DNA of 64,000 nucleotides, taken from positions 8,050 through 72,049 of the forward strand of contig CAYMPG010000001.1 of assembly GCA_964392455.1 (NCBI GenBank). Direction: 5' to 3'. Positions 10,017 to 28,986 of the stretch are shown here, one piece after another. Both the position numbers and the translations under genes were made by a program. The stretch comes from an uncultured Clostridium sp. (lineage in GTDB: Bacteria; Bacillota; Clostridia; Christensenellales; CAG-138). Within the stretch, counting starts at the first letter, position 1, and each line of letters starts with the position of its first letter. The notes under the pieces were generated by a model, which saw only the letters and a list, made by a program, of their open reading frames with translations, had not been told where the DNA came from and did not search any database.

Positions 10017-11225
10017 TTACTTTGCGAAGCTCTCTGCAAGGGAGATAATAACATCCACCATCTTTTCAAGGCTGCTTACAGGTATCCATTCCCGTACACC
10101 GTGGAAATTGTATCCGCCGGTGGCAATATTGGGGCAGGGAAGCCCATCCCATGAAAGGCGGGCGCCATCTGTGCCGCCGCGGATGGGTATTATCCTTGGG
10201 GCAACTCCGTTTGCACGGAATGCTTCCTCAGCCCGGGAGATAAGGTGCATATGGGGCAGCAGCTTTTCTTTCATGTTGTAATAGCTGTCTCGAATTATGG
10301 CGGTGGCCGTGCCGGGTCCATAGCGGCGGTTTATTTCCTCTGCGGCGGCCTTAAGCTGCTCCTTGCGGCGCTCAAAGGCGGCCATATCATGATCGCGTAT
10401 CAGGTAGTGAAGGTCTGTTTCCACAGCGCTGCCGGATATGGTGTGCAGATGGAAGAAGCCCTCGTAGCCCTCTGTCTTTTCGCATACCTCGTCAGGGGGC
10501 AGCAGGGCGTTAAGCTCCATGGCAACGGTGATGGCATTTACCATCACGCCCTTTGCGTGGCCGGGGTGAACGCCTATGCCCTTTACTGATACCACGGCAT
10601 TGGCTGCATTAAAGTTTTCGTATTCTATTTCGCCTATGGGGCCACCATCCACAGTGTAGGCAAATTCGCAGCCCAGTTCCTCCACATTCAGCCCGTCCGT
10701 ACCGGCGCCTATTTCCTCATCGGTGGTGAATACTGCACGTATCTCGCCATGGGGTTTGTGGCTGGATGCCATTTTTTCCAGTGCGGCCATTATTTCGGCT
10801 ATGCCCGCCTTGTCGTCGGCACCGAGAAGGGTGCTGCCGTCGGTTACGATTATCTCCTTGCCCACATATTCCTCAAGGCCGGGGCAGAGGGCCTCATTAA
10901 GGGATACGGTATCTGAAAGCTTCAGCTCGCCACCCTGGTAGGTGATGATAGAGGGGTTGATACCATTGCCCGGAGCATCGGGAGAAGTATCCATGTGGGC
11001 AATGAGGCCTATCACGGGAATGGGGGCGCTTGTATTGGCCGCAAGGGTGCCTGTTACGTTGCCACAGTCATCCATATGAATGTCCTTAAGGCCGATGGCC
11101 TCCATCTCCTCCATGAGAACCTTGCCCAGCAGCTTCTGGCTCTGGGTGGAGGGGGAGGTGTCAGAATCAAATGCAGATGAGGTATCGTAGGATACGTATT
11201 TCAGGAAGCGTTGGGTGGCAGTCAT
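10017..11225 (-). CDS. pepT: Peptidase T (tripeptide aminopeptidase, M20B)
   Basis: MTATQRFLKYVSYDTSS N-terminus, with HMDT, DDKAG and EEIG motifs. ORF 10017..11390 trimmed to ATG 11225. Confidence 0.9.
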   Translation of the reverse strand: MTATQRFLKYVSYDTSSAFDSDTSPSTQSQKLLGKVLMEEMEAIGLKDIHMDDCGNVTGTLAANTSAPIPVIGLIAHMDTSPDAPGNGINPSIITYQGGELKLSDTVSLNEALCPGLEEYVGKEIIVTDGSTLLGADDKAGIAEIMAALEKMASSHKPHGEIRAVFTTDEEIGAGTDGLNVEELGCEFAYTVDGGPIGEIEYENFNAANAVVSVKGIGVHPGHAKGVMVNAITVAMELNALLPPDEVCEKTEGYEGFFHLHTISGSAVETDLHYLIRDHDMAAFERRKEQLKAAAEEINRRYGPGTATAIIRDSYYNMKEKLLPHMHLISRAEEAFRANGVAPRIIPIRGGTDGARLSWDGLPCPNIATGGYNFHGVREWIPVSSLEKMVDVIISLAESFAK

Positions 11226-11535
11226 ATTGCTCTCCTTTTTTTCTGAGGATGGACAGGCGGCATTTATGCCGCACCGCACATGCTGATGGTACAATCTTTT
11301 TGCATAAAAGTCAATCGCCGAGGGAAAGGCAAATAAGGAAGGTTTATATATAATATCTGATATTTGCAGGAACGTGCAGCCTGAGAACACTGGCTGGAAG
11401 TGAAAAGGTGACGAGCATAAATATGCACAGAATCATGCATGAATAATCACAGATAAATTTAGGAATTTTACCTGCCGTCCGCTACATAGCCCATGGGGCA
11501 GGGACAGGAGCGAAATAAAAATTTTGAGAAAAGTG

Positions 11536-11564
11536 TTGACACGGGCGGGATTTGGTAGTAAAGT
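11536..11564 (+). promoter_or_regulatory. Sigma-A-type promoter for the leader and ABC operon
   Basis: TTGACA, 17-nt spacer, TAAAGT. Confidence 0.55.
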
Positions 11565-11596
11565 ATCCCCAGCGATAAAGAAAGGAGACAGCAGCG

Positions 11597-11686
11597 ATGA
11601 TGAACACCCGCTTTGTATTTGCAGGCTACATTTACTTTTACTTTTATGCAAATAAAGTAGGGGTTTTGAGTGCTGCACAAAAATAA
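11597..11686 (+). CDS. Candidate leader peptide MMNTRFVFAGYIYFYFYANKVGVLSAAQK (4 Phe and 4 Tyr within 12 residues)
   Basis: AAAGGAG RBS 9 nt upstream of ATG-ATG. Stop codon lies 25 nt upstream of a strong terminator hairpin. Below the length cutoff of the ORF track. Confidence 0.45.
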   Translation: MMNTRFVFAGYIYFYFYANKVGVLSAAQK

Positions 11687-11711
11687 AAAAGGCCACTCCA
11701 AGGAGTTACCT

Positions 11712-11756
11712 AAGGGCTGCACGAAAGACCTCGTGCAGCCCTTTATATATTATTTT
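11712..11756 (+). terminator. Intrinsic terminator/attenuator in the 5' leader of the ABC operon
   Basis: AAGGGCTGCACGA-AAGACC-TCGTGCAGCCCTT (13 bp) followed by TATATATTATTTT. Located 24 nt upstream of the SBP start codon. Confidence 0.7.
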
Positions 11757-11779
11757 AAGTTTTTCAGGAGGAAATCACA

Positions 11780-12730
11780 ATGAAAAAGGTTATTGCAATC
11801 ATGATGATGGCAGCCATGCTGCTGGGTATGTGCGGCTGTGCCGCAGAGAGCGAAAGTTATACCGTGGGCATATGTCAGCTTGTGCAGCACACTGCGCTGG
11901 ATGCTGCCACGCAGGGCTTCAAGGATGTGCTTACAGAGCAGCTTGGGGACAGCGTGGTCATAGAGGAGGCGAATGCCTCAAATGATATTCCCACCTGCGC
12001 TACCATCTGCAACGGCTTCGTAGCATCTGATGTGGATTTGATAATGGCAAACGCCACCCCCGCCCTTCAGGCCGCCGTTGCCGCTACAAACAGCATACCG
12101 GTGCTGGGCACCTCGGTTACAGAATACGGTGTTGCCCTGGGCATAGATGATTTCACCGGCGTGGTGGGCACCAATGTATCCGGCACCTCAGACCTTGCCC
12201 CGCTGGATCAGCAGGCTGCAATGATTACAGAGCTGCTGCCCGATGCAAAGACCGTGGGCATACTGTACTGCTCCGCCGAGGCAAATTCAGTATACCAGGC
12301 GGATGTGGTAAAGGGCTGCCTTGAGGCTGAGGGCATTACGGTAAACGTATACACCTTCGCAGATTCCAATGATATTGCCGCTGTTACCACCAGCGCCTGC
12401 TCCGAGTGCGATGCCCTGTACATTCCCACTGACAACACGGCTGCATCCTGCGCCGAGTCTATAAACGCAGTGGCGCTGCCCGCAGGCGTACCCATCATTG
12501 CAGGCGAGGAGGGCATCTGCACCGGATGCGGCGTGGCAACCCTCAGCATCGATTACTATCAGCTTGGCCGTGCCACCGGCGAGATGGCCGTAAAGGTGCT
12601 TAAGGGCGAGGCTGATATATCACAGCTTGAAATCGGCTACGCACCCCAGCCCACCAAGAAGTACAATGCGGATATAGCTTCTCAGCTTGGCATAGAGATT
12701 CCCGAGGGTTACACCGCCATAGGCGAATAA
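11780..12730 (+). CDS. ABC transporter substrate-binding lipoprotein (COG2984/PF04392 ABC_sub_bind type)
   Basis: Lipobox LLGMCGC. Motifs VGICQLVQHTALD and TVGILYCSAEANS are typical of this family. Confidence 0.8.
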   Translation: MKKVIAIMMMAAMLLGMCGCAAESESYTVGICQLVQHTALDAATQGFKDVLTEQLGDSVVIEEANASNDIPTCATICNGFVASDVDLIMANATPALQAAVAATNSIPVLGTSVTEYGVALGIDDFTGVVGTNVSGTSDLAPLDQQAAMITELLPDAKTVGILYCSAEANSVYQADVVKGCLEAEGITVNVYTFADSNDIAAVTTSACSECDALYIPTDNTAASCAESINAVALPAGVPIIAGEEGICTGCGVATLSIDYYQLGRATGEMAVKVLKGEADISQLEIGYAPQPTKKYNADIASQLGIEIPEGYTAIGE

Positions 12731-12753
12731 CACACTAAGAAAAACACACAATA

Positions 12754-12784
12754 CCGCCCCGGCGTGCGGATTATTCCGGGGCGG
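12754..12784 (+). other. Intercistronic hairpin after the SBP gene
   Basis: CCGCCCCGG-13 nt-CCGGGGCGG with no U tract. Typical of stabiliser or partial-stop hairpins in ABC operons. Confidence 0.5.
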
Positions 12785-12807
12785 GGAGAGCATAGAGGAT
12801 ATTTACC

Positions 12808-13761
12808 ATGAATACGGCAATATGTCTGGCGCTGCCCAGCATAGGAAATCTTATATCACGTATGCCCGGCGGCATAGCTCAGGGCGTGCTCTGGGGAATA
12901 ATGGCCCTGGGCCTGTACATAACCTTCAGGCTGCTGGATATAGCAGACCTTACTGTGGATGGCTCCTTTGCCACAGGGGGCGCAGTGGCCGTAATGCTGA
13001 TACTGGCAGGATGGCCTGCCTGGGCGGCGGCTCTGGCCGCAATGGCGGCAGGAGCATTGGCTGGAATGTGCACAGGGCTATTGCATACCAGAATGGGCAT
13101 CCCCGCAATACTTTCAGGAATACTTACCCAGTTTGCCCTGTATTCCATAAACCTTCGCATAATGGGCATGGCGGCAAATAAATCTGCCAATCCCGATGCA
13201 TACCGGCTGCTGATAAGCATGAGGAGCATACCGGAGGCCATATTAAAGGGAATCATCATAGCGGCGGCGCTGGTGGCGGTAATGTACTGGTACTTTGGCA
13301 CTGAGCAGGGCTCCGCCATACGCTCCACAGGGTCAAATCCTGCAATGAGCAGGGCGCAGGGCATAAATACCGATAATATGAAGCTCATCGGCCTTGCCCT
13401 GTCAAATGGCATAGTGGCCTTTGCAGGGGCGCTTATGGCCCAATATCAGGGCTTTGCAGATGTAAACATGGGGCGTGGCTCCATAGTGATTGGCCTTGCC
13501 GCAATAATAATAGGCGAGGTGATATGCGATGGGCTGTTCAGCAAGGGGTGCAGCTTCTGGGTAAAGCTGAGCTTCGTGGCGCTGGGCGGCATAGTGTACT
13601 ACCTGGTAATGGTGGTGATACTCTGGCTCAAGCTGGATCCCAATGACCTTAAGCTGTTCACAGCGCTGATAGTTGCAGTATTTCTGGCGGTGCCAAATAT
13701 TCAGGCCCGGGCAAAGCATTCCTTCAGGGGTGCCGCCCGGCCGGGAGCAAAAGGAGAATGA
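12808..13761 (+). CDS. ABC transporter permease (BPD_transp_2 type, partner of the PF04392 SBP)
   Basis: 317 aa multi-TM protein in an operon with the SBP and ATPase. Confidence 0.85.
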   Translation: MNTAICLALPSIGNLISRMPGGIAQGVLWGIMALGLYITFRLLDIADLTVDGSFATGGAVAVMLILAGWPAWAAALAAMAAGALAGMCTGLLHTRMGIPAILSGILTQFALYSINLRIMGMAANKSANPDAYRLLISMRSIPEAILKGIIIAAALVAVMYWYFGTEQGSAIRSTGSNPAMSRAQGINTDNMKLIGLALSNGIVAFAGALMAQYQGFADVNMGRGSIVIGLAAIIIGEVICDGLFSKGCSFWVKLSFVALGGIVYYLVMVVILWLKLDPNDLKLFTALIVAVFLAVPNIQARAKHSFRGAARPGAKGE

Positions 13762-13765
13762 TACC

Positions 13766-14572
13766 ATGCTGATACTCAAGGATATATGTAAGACCTTCAA
13801 CCGGGGCACTATAAATGAAAAGGCTGCACTGTCATCATTGTCACTGCACCTTAAGCCGGGGGACTTTGTAACGGTAATAGGCGGAAATGGCGCAGGCAAA
13901 TCCACCATGCTGAATGCCGTTGCAGGGGTATGGCCTGTGGACAGCGGAAGCATCATAATAGATGGCGAGGATGTTACAAATCAGAGTGAGCACAGGCGGG
14001 CGGCCCATATAGGCAGGGTATTTCAGGACCCCATGATGGGCACTGCGCCAAATATGCAGATAGAGGAAAACCTTGCCCTTGCCCTCCGCAGAGGCCAGCG
14101 CCGCACCCTGCGCTGGGGCGTTACAGACAGGGAGCGGCAGGAATACAGAGAGCGACTCAGCAGCCTTGGCCTTGGCCTTGAGGACAGGATGACCGCAAAG
14201 GTGGGGCTGCTTTCAGGCGGCCAGCGTCAGGCTCTTACGCTGCTCATGGCATCGCTGCAAAAGCCAAAGCTGCTGCTGTTGGATGAGCACACCGCTGCGC
14301 TGGATCCTGCCACCGCCGCAAAGGTGCTGGCCCTGTCGGATGAGCTGATACAGCGGGATAACCTTACTGCCATGATGATAACCCATAATATGAAGGACGC
14401 CATAGAGCATGGCACCCGCCTGATAATGATGGACCAGGGCAGGATAATACTTGACGTGGAGGGCGAGGAAAAGAAACGCCTTACCAGGCAGGACCTTATG
14501 AATAAATTCGTAGAGCTTGCAGGCAGCTCCGTGGAATCAGACAGGATGCTCCTGTACAGGCACAGCGCATAG
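13766..14572 (+). CDS. ABC transporter ATP-binding protein
   Basis: Start moved to ATG 13766 (AAGGAG RBS). Walker A GGNGAGKST, signature LSGGQRQ, Walker B LLLLDEHTAALD. Confidence 0.9.
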   Translation: MLILKDICKTFNRGTINEKAALSSLSLHLKPGDFVTVIGGNGAGKSTMLNAVAGVWPVDSGSIIIDGEDVTNQSEHRRAAHIGRVFQDPMMGTAPNMQIEENLALALRRGQRRTLRWGVTDRERQEYRERLSSLGLGLEDRMTAKVGLLSGGQRQALTLLMASLQKPKLLLLDEHTAALDPATAAKVLALSDELIQRDNLTAMMITHNMKDAIEHGTRLIMMDQGRIILDVEGEEKKRLTRQDLMNKFVELAGSSVESDRMLLYRHSA

Positions 14573-14633: not shown

Positions 14634-15554
14634 TTAGGAGAGCTTGCTGAATTCCACGGCGATGCGGGAAGCAACACGGGCGTTGTTATAGGCAAGCTCC
14701 AAATTGGAGGCAAAGGATACGCCGTCAGTCATGTCCTTAATGTGGGAAAGGAGGAAGGGGGTGGTGTCCTTACCACGGATGCCCTGCTCCTTGGCCAGCT
14801 TAAGGGCGTTGTTGATGACGGTTTCCATCTCGTCAAAATCCAGCTCGAACTCTTCGGGGATGGGGTTGGCAATAAGTGCGCCGCCTTCCAGGCCCAGATT
14901 CCACTTGGTCTTGAGGATGCGGGCAATCTCGTTGGCGTCCTTGGCGCTGTAGTCCACCTTGTAGCCGCTCTTACGGCAGTAGAAGGCGGGGAAATCCTCG
15001 GTATCAACGCCTATTACAGGCACGCCCATGGTCTCAAGGTATTCAAGGGTAAGGCCTATATCAAGCAGGGATTTTGCGCCTGCGCCGATAACTGCAACGG
15101 GGGTATGGGCCAGCTCCTGAAGGTCTGCGCTGATGTCCATGGTCTCGGTGGCGCCACGGTGTACGCCGCCTATGCCGCCGGTGGCGAAGATGGGGATGCC
15201 GGCCATTGCGGCTATCATCATGGTGGTGGCAACGGTGGTAGCGCCGGTCTTACCGGTGGCAAGATACACGGCCACGTCACGACGGCTTACCTTGCCTACG
15301 TTTTCCGCTTTGCACATGATATCCAGCTCATCGGAGGTAAGGCCCACCTTGAGCTTGCCGCCGATGATGGCGGTGGTGGCAGGTATGGCGCCCTCGCTGC
15401 GGACTATTTCTTCTACCTTATGGGCAAATTCCACGTTCTGAGGGAAGGGCATGCCGTGGCTGAGTATGGTGCTCTCAAGGGCAACCACAGGACGGCCCTG
15501 GTCGATGGCCTGCTGGATCTCGGGGGTAACGCTGAGATAGTCTTTCATAGTCAT
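14634..15554 (-). CDS. psuG: Pseudouridine-5'-phosphate glycosidase
   Basis: N-terminus ...VVALESTILSHGMPFPQN and a GGIGGVHRG motif. Confidence 0.9.
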   Translation of the reverse strand: MTMKDYLSVTPEIQQAIDQGRPVVALESTILSHGMPFPQNVEFAHKVEEIVRSEGAIPATTAIIGGKLKVGLTSDELDIMCKAENVGKVSRRDVAVYLATGKTGATTVATTMMIAAMAGIPIFATGGIGGVHRGATETMDISADLQELAHTPVAVIGAGAKSLLDIGLTLEYLETMGVPVIGVDTEDFPAFYCRKSGYKVDYSAKDANEIARILKTKWNLGLEGGALIANPIPEEFELDFDEMETVINNALKLAKEQGIRGKDTTPFLLSHIKDMTDGVSFASNLELAYNNARVASRIAVEFSKLS

Positions 15555-15559
15555 GGTAT

Positions 15560-16657
15560 TTATCCTCTTTCGGCAATAATTTTTTCTATTATTTCCACGC
15601 TCATGCGGGGATTAATAGTATTCTGGTCTGATATTGCTGCTATACCGGCAGCAAGGGCATAATCAAGGGTGGATGAGATATCCATATCCATAAGGTAGCC
15701 ATAGGCCACAGCTCCCATAAATGCATCTCCTGCACCGGAGGCATTTATCACATCATCCACAGGGCGCAGCCCACGGGATATTGTGCGGCCCTTTGCATCC
15801 ATATACAGGCAGCCATCCTGCCCAAGGGATACGAATATGCGCTGCACGCCTTTGTTTATAAGTATCTCGCAGGCCTTTATGGCTTCATTTTTGCTGCTTA
15901 CATCATGCTCGCTGAGAACTGCCAGCTCCATAAGATTGGGCTTGAGGGTGTGTATGCGCCCCACGTAGGGCCTTAGCCGTGCGGCGTAGGCAGAGGAGAC
16001 CGGGTCGCAAAACAGGGGGATGGAGCTGCCATATGTGAGGGTTATGCCGTCTATAACCTCCTCAGGCAGGGCAGGGTCGAATACTATCAGCTTTGCGCCC
16101 TTTATGACACCTTCACGGCGGCGGATAAACTCCATATTCATATTTTGAAGCACCGTCATATCAGACAGGGCAACGTACATTTCCCCGTGATCATCCAGCA
16201 TGGATATATATGACGAGGAGGAATGGTTTTCCACCACCATGCACTGGCTCATATCTATGCCGGCGGCAACGGAATCCTCACGTATCATGCGGCCGTATAC
16301 ATCGTTGCCAAGGGCTGAGATAAGGCGAACGCTGCCTCCCAGGCGGGCAAGGTTTTCGCAGATATTGCGGGTAACGCCGCCTGAGGATATGTTCATTTTG
16401 CCCGGGTTGCTGTCGTGCATTATTATGGGCTTCTTGCTGCGCCCGCAAATATCCACATTGGCAGCCCCTATGCCCACTGCATACGGGGAATCGTTTACAA
16501 GGTAAATGCGTCCGCCAATGTAGCCCTTCTTTTGCAGGTTTGATATATGCACTGCCACAGAGGGCCGGGCGATATTCAGCCGAGCGGCGATCGCGCTCTG
16601 CTCTATATCAGGCTGCTGCTTTATTATTTCCAGTATTTCCCGCTCACGATTGGTCAT
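15560..16657 (-). CDS. psuK: PfkB-family (pseudouridine) kinase with an N-terminal winged-HTH domain (YeiI/PsuK-like)
   Basis: HTH segment REREILEIIKQQPDIEQSAIAARLNIARPSVAVHISNLQKKGYI fused to a ribokinase fold (GAGDAF motif). Lies 5 nt upstream of psuG. Confidence 0.8.
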   Translation of the reverse strand: MTNREREILEIIKQQPDIEQSAIAARLNIARPSVAVHISNLQKKGYIGGRIYLVNDSPYAVGIGAANVDICGRSKKPIIMHDSNPGKMNISSGGVTRNICENLARLGGSVRLISALGNDVYGRMIREDSVAAGIDMSQCMVVENHSSSSYISMLDDHGEMYVALSDMTVLQNMNMEFIRRREGVIKGAKLIVFDPALPEEVIDGITLTYGSSIPLFCDPVSSAYAARLRPYVGRIHTLKPNLMELAVLSEHDVSSKNEAIKACEILINKGVQRIFVSLGQDGCLYMDAKGRTISRGLRPVDDVINASGAGDAFMGAVAYGYLMDMDISSTLDYALAAGIAAISDQNTINPRMSVEIIEKIIAERG

Positions 16658-28897: not shown

Positions 28898-28986
28898 GGA
28901 GCGGTATCGAAGTGGTCATAACGGGGCTGACTCGAAATCAGTTTGCGCGAAAGCGCACGTGGGTTCGAATCCCACCCGCTCCGCCA
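28898..28986 (+). tRNA. tRNA-Ser (anticodon CGA), type II, CCA encoded
   Basis: Acceptor GGAGCGG/CCGCTCC. Anticodon loop CTCGAAA. Variable arm GCGCGAAAGCGC. T arm GTGGG-TTCGAAT-CCCAC. Confidence 0.9.

Follow-up and report, generated by a model that had tools for sequence, protein, structure and literature searches.

The 64,000-nucleotide (nt) stretch of DNA analyzed here (the window), which derives from an uncultured Clostridium sp., carries a short leader open reading frame (ORF) that is dense in tyrosine and phenylalanine codons and is followed by an intrinsic terminator, directly upstream of an ABC transporter operon. Our analyses, which were computational throughout (sequence analysis, comparison, and folding), indicate that this leader most likely controls a tyrosine ABC importer by ribosome-mediated, leader-peptide transcription attenuation, with charged tRNA-Tyr and, probably, tRNA-Phe as the sensed signal. 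An initial annotation, made from the letters of the DNA, had raised the idea of Tyr/Phe-sensing attenuation of an aromatic amino acid importer, and this idea is supported by our finding that the ORF, its Shine-Dalgarno (SD) sequence, the codon run, and the terminator recur before orthologous transporters across Clostridia. Translation of the leader ORF, termination at the hairpin, and a response to tyrosine are what we infer from these sequences.

The components described in that annotation were all confirmed in place, namely the promoter, the SD sequence, the 29-codon ORF with eight Phe/Tyr residues within 12 codons (codons 6-17), the 25-nt gap that separates the leader stop codon from the terminator, and the 13-bp hairpin (Table 1). 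The leader promoter matches the consensus at 10 of 12 positions and is the sole plus-strand promoter-like site that a consensus scan found in 10900-12100. The terminator, a perfect 13-bp stem with a 6-nt loop and the tail TATATATTATTTT, has a hairpin energy of -24.3 kcal/mol and is likewise the sole plus-strand terminator in the region by consensus scan; the ATG of the gene for the substrate-binding protein (SBP), at 11780, lies 36 nt past its stem and ~24 nt past its U-rich tail. Compared with dinucleotide shuffles, the leader (11571-11760) folds at z = -4.1. The gene upstream of the leader encodes a divergent M20 peptidase, and no plus-strand gene ends upstream, so the hairpin at 11712-11743 terminates no other gene. 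Within the 64-kb window, the leader ORF is the only ORF of its kind upstream of a gene.

Aromatic leaders upstream of orthologous transporters

An ortholog scan with one genome per species yielded 80 loci (designated here by L numbers) from many Clostridia and a few other Bacillota, with a binding-protein identity of 58-98% across the compared Clostridia loci. About 35 of the 80 loci contain, 90-250 nt 5' of the SBP gene, an SD sequence, an ORF of 17-36 codons that includes a Tyr/Phe run, and then a terminator, which occupies the equivalent position in all of the leader-bearing orthologous loci. An SD-like motif is present 6-12 nt 5' of the leader ATG in 21 of 22 family representatives, and a TTGAC..TAAAGT promoter or a TAAAGT-like -10 box is found 33-38 nt 5' of this ATG in most related loci. 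In L001, L003, and L004 (SBP 98%, 90%, and 79% identical, respectively), the promoter-to-SBP-start stretch is kept, whereas the remaining intergenic DNA is not, and the leader promoter persists although the DNA further upstream diverges. In the relative with the 90% identical SBP, this stretch is far more conserved than other intergenic sequence, and the ORF changes in close relatives are conservative or synonymous (TAC/TAT, GTT/GTC, TTG/TTA, and GCA/GCG). The initial annotation had regarded a lack of leader conservation as the chief argument that could be brought against attenuation; the alignment of orthologous loci revealed the opposite across Clostridia.

A nucleotide-pattern scan of metagenomes with GTAATRGNNGTTTGTGCNGC, a pattern that cannot detect window-type or divergent leaders, added 55 further contigs with the leader, while about half of its 120 matches were chance matches, chiefly on marine and other non-gut contigs. 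An SBP ortholog was located 3' of every true metagenome leader whose downstream sequence was intact and long enough. Moreover, none of the metagenome pattern matches placed the same leader before other genes, and a wider regulon was not found among them. One leader-like candidate, L116, was rejected, as it sits within a 410-aa ORF on the opposite strand.

Among the leader peptides, only the aromatic run is common, and the other residues, the length, and the termini vary, as illustrated by MSFRFKVSRYFYYYFFAESNGRLCCT, MNMFAAIKNAGIYYYYFYATSNGCLCCASKANR, MKQMKRNTVSLHYYYRYYYDSSVYCR, and MAFVNFAAAYYYYYFATR from orthologous loci. The run itself reads, for example, RYFYYYFF, GIYYYYFYA, LHYYYRYYYD, SYYRYYYA, or AAYYYYYFATR. 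Across 39 distinct peptides (1047 residues), Tyr accounts for 15.8% and Phe for 12.1% of the residues, and Trp is absent (0). Both Tyr codons are used nearly equally (TAC 86, TAT 79), and the remaining two reading frames over the leader contain stops and no aromatic run. Tyr runs are also present in leaders without the conserved nucleotide motif described below (L019, L016, L053, and L060). To compare these ORFs with background, we used a criterion of an ATG, an SD sequence, 12-45 codons, at least five aromatic residues in eight, and at least two Tyr; it was passed by 20 of 77 loci (in the 280 nt 5' of the SBP) and by none of 3117 background short ORFs (0/3117, in 973 kb from related loci). 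The initial annotation had given Phe and Tyr equal weight, and while its aromatic run was upheld, Tyr is the most enriched residue and Tyr-only runs exist (e.g., HYYYRYYYD), so that, judged by composition, the emphasis is on Tyr rather than on Phe and Tyr equally.

To consider the ligand, we compared the window SBP with proteins of solved structure. Its best PDB relative is 6HNI, Clostridioides difficile CD0873 (phmmer, E 2.2e-49). CD0873 (6HNI/6HNJ/6HNK) is the closest solved relative and shares both specificity residues with the window SBP, but the identity is modest, making it a phmmer hit and not a high-identity ortholog. CD0873 was crystallized with tyrosine and is stabilized specifically by tyrosine, and its selectivity has been ascribed to (i) Glu-263, which binds the tyrosine hydroxyl and is replaced by Ala in 3LKV and 3LFT, two relatives that bind Phe and Trp, and to (ii) Tyr-279, which excludes Trp and is a Gln in a Trp binder (PMC6816091). 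In a HMMER alignment to 6HNI, E243 and Y259 of the window SBP align with CD0873 Glu-263 and Tyr-279, and neither residue varies among 83 orthologs. The transporter is thus likely a tyrosine importer, judging from these residues.

One transporter ortholog, L071, contains a T-box in place of the leader ORF (2663-2915; 78.6 bits, E 2.4e-17, below the Rfam gathering threshold of 93). Its specifier, which we tentatively take to be UUC (Phe) within GAA-UUC-A by analogy with known T-boxes, accompanies an SBP that retains the Tyr-type Glu and Tyr residues. Trp importers of PF04392 are also under T-box control (PMC9382623). Given the ligand evidence and the T-box control of this family, the switching on of a Tyr (or aromatic) importer by Tyr/Phe starvation would be coherent.

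Some orthologous loci are organized in other ways. L008, L009, L011, L013, L017, and L018 (SBP 73-77% identical) contain a ~50-codon ORF ~90-300 nt 5' of the SBP gene, in which Tyr and Phe are scattered and not run-like (e.g., SAYSYFSFIKVCYADRYFAALNLSDRCE), followed by a terminator; this subgroup may represent a variant attenuator. Most Lachnospiraceae orthologs (e.g., L020, L023, L033, L045, L056, and L066) showed no leader ORF, terminator, or Rfam element 5' of the SBP, and their SBP ORFs apparently have longer N-termini. At the promoter, a 10-nt inverted repeat, ACTTTAGCAC-N6-GTGCTAAAGT, spans the -35/-10 region in L179, L140, L195, L167, L177, L134, and L160, ~30-60 nt 5' of the leader ATG, with a compensated form (ACTTTATCAC/GTGATAAAGT) in L195; the repeat is not present in the window. 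Its sequence resembles the operator of a dimeric repressor, and control by such a repressor would come on top of attenuation. In a different subgroup, the promoter spacer contains TTAAAAG in place of the inverted repeat.

Antiterminator pairing and the position of the ribosome

Most of the leaders have in common, 3' of the run, the block AGUAAURG-NN-GUUUGUGCUGC. The reading frame of this block varies, being SNGxLCC in most leaders and V-G-V-L-S-A-A in the window homolog (AGUAGGGGUUUUGAGUGCUGC), and in L024, L046, L140, L177, L179, and L195, the ORF stops at the UAA within AGUAAU and the block follows the stop codon. Because the block is kept whatever the reading frame or the stop position, it is an RNA element, and base pairing links its 3' part to the cognate terminator, as in AGAAGUUUGUGC x GCACAGACUUCU, AGUCGUUUGUGC x GCACAGACGACU, and GGUUGUUUGUGC x GCAUGAGCAACC.

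The initial annotation had failed to draw a convincing antiterminator by eye; our analysis identified one, and it covaries. In the window, its strands are 11660-11676 (region 2) and 11716-11732, the latter from the terminator's distal 5' arm and loop, and its formation and that of the terminator are mutually exclusive. The duplex (-21.3 kcal/mol) is composed of 11660-11667 with 11725-11732, 11670-11673 with 11719-11722, and 11675-11676 with 11716-11717, and it is strengthened in L003 by U.G to C-G and A.G to U.G changes.

The helix was evaluated in a hand-anchored alignment of 19 distinct leaders, in which the 16 nt ending in GUGC were set against the 16 nt starting with GCAC. In this alignment, 88.7% of the cells are paired in comparison with 79.5 +/- 1.3% in shuffles (0/500), although the four terminal pairs (GUGC/GCAC) serve as the register anchor, are paired by construction, and provide no evidence; six slid registers showed only 30-48% of cells paired. 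The double-change cells numbered 26 against 9.4 +/- 2.5 in shuffles (0/500), and the helix pairs changed on both sides numbered 6 against 4.4 +/- 0.9 (52/500 shuffles reached 6), with the qualification that the sequences are related and such shuffle controls therefore overstate significance. At two variable positions, the double changes include AA/UU, UC/GA, UU/AA, CG/UG, and UA/UA. An anchor-free duplex test gave the same answer as the anchored one: with 22 representatives, the pairing of region 2 with region 3 was -17.65 kcal/mol for cognate and -13.10 kcal/mol for non-cognate combinations (0/20000 permutations). In the L005/L007 group, moreover, the terminator arms are swapped, and region 2 still pairs with the 5' arm and the loop.

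In the mechanism that we favor, transcription would begin near 11571, where we place the start site, and a ribosome would load on the leader ORF (11597-11686). When Tyr and Phe are plentiful, this ribosome would reach the stop codon and cover the 3' half of region 2, region 3 would pair with region 4, and transcription would terminate at the U tract (~11744-11756) before the transporter genes. When charged tRNA-Tyr/Phe is scarce, it would stall in the eight-codon run (11612-11647), at least 12 nt 5' of region 2; the free region 2 would then pair with 11716-11732, a segment of the terminator that extends from the distal 5' arm through the entire loop to the second base of the 3' arm, the terminator would be blocked, and the operon (11780-14572) would be transcribed.

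The geometry required of the ribosome was examined in the 22 representatives. In all of them, the antiterminator strand starts at least 10 nt past the last run codon, and a stalled ribosome covers 0% of it; with the stop codon in the A site, the coverage of region 2 has a mean of 60% and is at least 38% in 19 of the 22. We also predicted the folds of nascent transcripts truncated ahead of the 3' arm, in which a 27-nt ribosome footprint was masked and shifted codon by codon. In these masked folds, most Tyr/Phe codons, when placed in the A site, allow region 2 to capture the terminator 5' arm and loop, and a ribosome at the ORF end sets them free again in 19 of 23 modelled leaders. The window minimum free energy (MFE) folds form the antiterminator with the A site on Y11, Y15, F16, Y17, or A18 and lose it with the ribosome at the stop codon, whereupon the full transcript folds into the terminator. 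The small spacer hairpin between the leader stop codon and the terminator (Table 1) is present in every window fold and shortens the antiterminator loop, and it is kept by compensatory changes (ACUCC/GGAGU in the window, CUCA/UGAG in L003, and GCUC/GAGC in L004).

Besides the limits on the covariation figures given above, several points weigh against this attenuation mechanism. The ribosome at the stop codon covers only 53% of region 2 in the window, and in L014, L040, and L049 (3 of 22 families), the ORF ends 19-27 nt beyond region 2. With the A site on Y13 in the window, the MFE favors another pairing. In ribosome-free equilibrium folds, many leaders, among them the window nascent transcript, adopt the antiterminator, so the state of the classical trp model in which absence of translation leads to termination is not clearly present. 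Three of the Tyr/Phe codons (UAU UAC UUU) lie within an almost invariant 10-bp hairpin, so that RNA structure also accounts for part of the codon run. Finally, in Bacillus subtilis, transcription is reported to proceed uncoupled from translation, and the same situation here would make the mechanism harder.

Table 1. Positions of the leader elements and transporter genes in the window
Feature	Position	Strand	Details
Sigma-70-type promoter	11536..11564	+	-35 TTGACA 11536-11541, 17-nt spacer, -10 TAAAGT 11559-11564
Leader-ORF SD	11581..11587	+	AAAGGAG, 9 nt 5' of ATG
Leader ORF	11597..11686	+	29 codons + TAA, starts ATGATG; predicted peptide MMNTRFVFAGYIYFYFYANKVGVLSAAQK
Regulatory codon run (region 1)	11612..11647	+	F6, F8, Y11, Y13, F14, Y15, F16, Y17; dense part 11627-11647
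Hairpin 1:2, built from Tyr/Phe codons	11634..11664	+	11634-11644 (ACUUUUACUUU) x 11654-11664 (AAAGUAGGGGU), MFE fold
Region 2 (antiterminator 5' strand)	11660..11676	+	GGGGUUUUGAGUGCUGC; counterpart of the family block RGNNGUUUGUGCUGC
Small spacer hairpin	11690..11711	+	GGC..ACUCC AAGG AGU..ACC, between leader stop and terminator
Intrinsic terminator (regions 3 and 4)	11712..11756	+	5' arm 11712-11724, loop 11725-11730, 3' arm 11731-11743, U-rich tail 11744-11756
Substrate-binding lipoprotein (PF04392), predicted tyrosine-binding	11780..12730	+	Pfam 4.4e-54, 184 bits; ribosome-binding site (RBS) AGGAGG 11766-11771
ABC permease (BPD_transp_2)	12808..13761	+	Gene order same in L001 and L003
ABC ATPase	13766..14572	+	Listed ORF 13673-14572; probable start 13766, by comparison with the 268-aa genes in L001 and L003

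The codon hairpin and alternative explanations

In 20 of 20 leaders, RNAalifold predicted the 10-bp hairpin in which CUAUUACUUU, made of the Tyr/Phe codons, pairs with RRGUAAURG. The support for this codon hairpin is mostly conservation, with two pairs showing double changes, and it is lengthened to 13-14 bp in L177 and L195. GUUUGUG/GUUUUGAG lies directly 3' of it, and in the window, the hairpin (11634-11644 with 11654-11664) overlaps the antiterminator strand by 5 nt. Its role would be that of a pause and/or anti-antiterminator hairpin, which would open only under a translating ribosome. A bolder form of this idea, which we hold only tentatively and consider unlikely on balance, is that the codon hairpin and GUUUGUG would form an RNA polymerase pause released only by the leading ribosome. 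This would enforce coupling at this site and create a three-state device (paused; stalled, and on; completed, and off), which in many relatives would be layered on the palindromic promoter operator. Transcription-translation coupling is thought to be weak in this phylum.

The same hairpin could be the core, together with the GUUUGUGCUGC block, of a structured RNA switch (a metabolite riboswitch or a protein-binding site), in which the ORF is incidental and a ligand or a protein decides between antiterminator and terminator. The CUAUUACUUU/RRGUAAURG hairpin and the adjoining block are indeed almost invariant in nucleotides across the core family, the block is kept independently of the reading frame, and the antiterminator is often the default in ribosome-free folds, which fits an "off" switch induced by a factor. 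We nevertheless regard such a switch as improbable. The SD, the ATG, and the open frame are kept in every family despite an unconserved 5' half of the ORF, and at least 18.8% of the residues are still Tyr/Phe after subtracting three codons per peptide. Furthermore, Tyr runs persist in the motif-less divergent leaders listed above, and one small hairpin plus a linear strand is too simple for an amino acid aptamer of a known type. Sensing through the codon run is the better explanation because Tyr/Phe codons are found outside the hairpin arm, because Tyr runs exist without the motif, and because SD, ATG, and frame are retained.

The lack of an Rfam match also speaks against such a switch; Rfam 15 (4227 families) was used at gathering thresholds and in a permissive mode (E<=10). 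At gathering thresholds, nothing matched over the window leader, and no T-box (RF00230) was detected in the window in either mode, upholding the report of the initial annotation that neither a T-box motif nor a recognizable riboswitch core is present. In permissive mode, Phe_leader reached only 18.1 bits in the window, on the minus strand (gathering 55), and a caiA-RNA match over the terminator and the SD (26 bits, gathering 55.5) was rejected as a resemblance of hairpin, SD, and ATG only. The Rfam scan of 40 related loci showed nothing over the leader, with 20 leader-bearing loci devoid of any known family or T-box, and a T-box regex screen combined with Rfam on the orthologs without a leader ORF detected a T-box in L071 only. 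Elsewhere in these loci, Rfam detected a Clostridiales-1 RNA (L056:179-336, minus strand) and a full-score T-box (L049:6088-6333, plus strand, downstream).

A second alternative retains the attenuator and changes the partner of the antiterminator. GCTGCAC is present twice in the window, in the leader (11672-11678) and in the terminator 5' arm (11716-11722), and the initial annotation had pointed out that the leader copy can pair with the 3' arm. The exact 7-nt copy is real, and the duplex of leader GCUGCAC with GUGCAGC of the 3' arm (11733-11739), which would compete with the 5' arm, has an energy of -15.5 kcal/mol in the window; its cognate pairings are also slightly better than the non-cognate ones (-10.25 vs -9.22; 214/20000). 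Even so, this pairing is very unlikely to be the antiterminator. In 21 of 22 families, the duplex with the 5' arm and loop is the stronger of the two (in the window, -21.3 vs -15.5 kcal/mol), and pairing with the 3' arm needs a 54-nt loop and competes with an adjacent perfect 13-bp stem formed from earlier-transcribed sequence. In L005/L007, with their arms swapped, it is again the 5' arm and loop that region 2 pairs with. The resemblance to the 3' arm probably follows from the near-palindromic GUGC/GCAC.

Slightly less probable still is the proposal that the ORF encodes a functional hydrophobic micro-protein, such as a membrane accessory of the transporter or the precursor of a Cys-rich peptide, with the hairpin as a leaky terminator or a stabilizer. 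The ORF was annotated by gene calling in L001, and the peptides are hydrophobic, 17-36 aa in length, and often end in xLCC. However, the aromatic run alone is conserved, while the length, the termini, and the other residues are free. The "LCC" is the block GUGCUGC; the window reads this block as S-A-A, and the leaders L024, L046, L140, L177, L179, and L195 have it downstream of the stop codon. Being frame-independent, the block reflects a constraint on the RNA and not on a protein, and it pairs and covaries with the terminator. The free variation of the peptide bears in the same way on a role for the nascent chain. TnaC, a nascent peptide, senses tryptophan in the exit tunnel, and by analogy, the Tyr/Phe-rich peptide could sense free tyrosine there, giving substrate induction for tyrosine fermentation; because the peptide varies freely, this is unlikely.

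That the aromatic ORF arose by chance in a T-rich spacer, as the initial annotation had allowed, and that the hairpin is a terminator or insulator without a regulatory role, is hardly credible, for although the region is AT-rich and TTT, TAT, and TAC codons arise easily in it, the notion is contradicted by the comparison with background short ORFs (0/3117 vs 20/77 loci), by the conservation of the feature across distant Clostridia, and by the divergent M20 peptidase gene, with no plus-strand gene ending upstream. Two further roles for the hairpin were rejected. Sequestration of the RBS is contradicted by the location of the SBP RBS (11766-11771) outside the hairpin, unpaired in all folds, and a bidirectional or upstream-gene terminator is contradicted by the lack of a plus-strand gene end upstream and of a T tract on the minus-strand side of the hairpin.

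Neighboring features, related attenuators, and significance

Between the M20 peptidase gene and the leader promoter, the window contains a 22-nt imperfect tandem direct repeat (11415-11458; GCATAAATATGCACAGAATCAT / GCATGAATAATCACAGATAAAT), which is partly kept in L003 and at which a regulator of one of the divergent promoters may bind. On the minus strand, convergent with the transporter operon, 14634-16657 comprises an HTH-PfkB kinase fusion and a pseudouridine-5'-phosphate glycosidase-like gene (Indigoidine_A), the latter also present in L001 and L003, which are syntenic; the genes look like a pseudouridine catabolism pair. A tRNA gene was located by the Rfam scan at 28898-28983 on the plus strand.

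Leader-peptide attenuation is classical for trp, pheA, and pheST in Escherichia coli, and ribosome-mediated attenuation also controls antibiotic-responsive genes in B. subtilis. The E. coli pheL-pheA and pheM-pheST (RF01859) leaders resemble the window family in comprising an SD, a short aromatic-codon ORF, and a terminator with an alternative antiterminator, and they sense charged tRNA through ribosome stalling (PMC11802643). They differ in that they contain Phe only, are proteobacterial, target biosynthetic or tRNA-synthetase genes, and have no similarity in sequence or structure, whereas in the window family, Tyr dominates, the hosts are Clostridia, and the target is an importer. The Corynebacterium glutamicum aroR leader of aroF also combines Phe and Tyr in a leader peptide (Phe-Tyr-Phe) that controls an aromatic amino acid gene by ribosome stalling, and it is reported to respond to Phe and not to Tyr availability (PMC11802643). 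This leader is actinobacterial, contains three regulatory codons, and has a biosynthetic target, whereas the window family contains up to 7 Tyr codons as well as Tyr-only runs.

Among Firmicutes, His leader-peptide attenuators have been described for hisS/hisZ in the Bacillus cereus group and for the his operons of Peptostreptococcaceae and Erysipelotrichales (PMC2965389, PMC9413887). These are classical attenuators that replace T-boxes or repressors, including in relatives within Clostridia, but their regulatory codons are those for His, their targets are biosynthetic or synthetase genes, and their sequences are unrelated. The T-box-controlled TrpXYZ of Streptococcus suis belongs to the same transporter family and likewise depends on read-through of a leader terminator upon accumulation of uncharged cognate tRNA (PMC9382623); there, the sensor is a direct contact between tRNA and RNA, whereas the proposed sensor of the window family is the translating ribosome. 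A description of a Tyr leader was not found in the literature that we searched, including Weinberg et al. 2017. The Tyr-dominated leader before an importer in Clostridia is a classical mechanism in a family that is new to Rfam and to the searched literature.

T-boxes and repressors are regarded as the norm in gut Clostridia. If our reading is correct, classical ribosome-mediated attenuation would be widespread in these bacteria, placed before an importer rather than a biosynthetic operon, and tyrosine would join the few amino acids known to be sensed in this way. The leader also bears on the tightness of transcription-translation coupling in Clostridia. As a small, modular element with a defined, covarying antiterminator, it could serve as a tyrosine-responsive part in anaerobes. 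Furthermore, it would provide a regulatory argument for annotating many genes labeled "ABC transporter substrate-binding protein" as tyrosine (or aromatic) importers; CD0873 has itself been linked to C. difficile colonization and p-cresol production (PMC6816091). In summary, the finding would introduce no new principle, and its significance would lie in a widespread attenuator family that assigns a function to a common gut-bacterial transporter.

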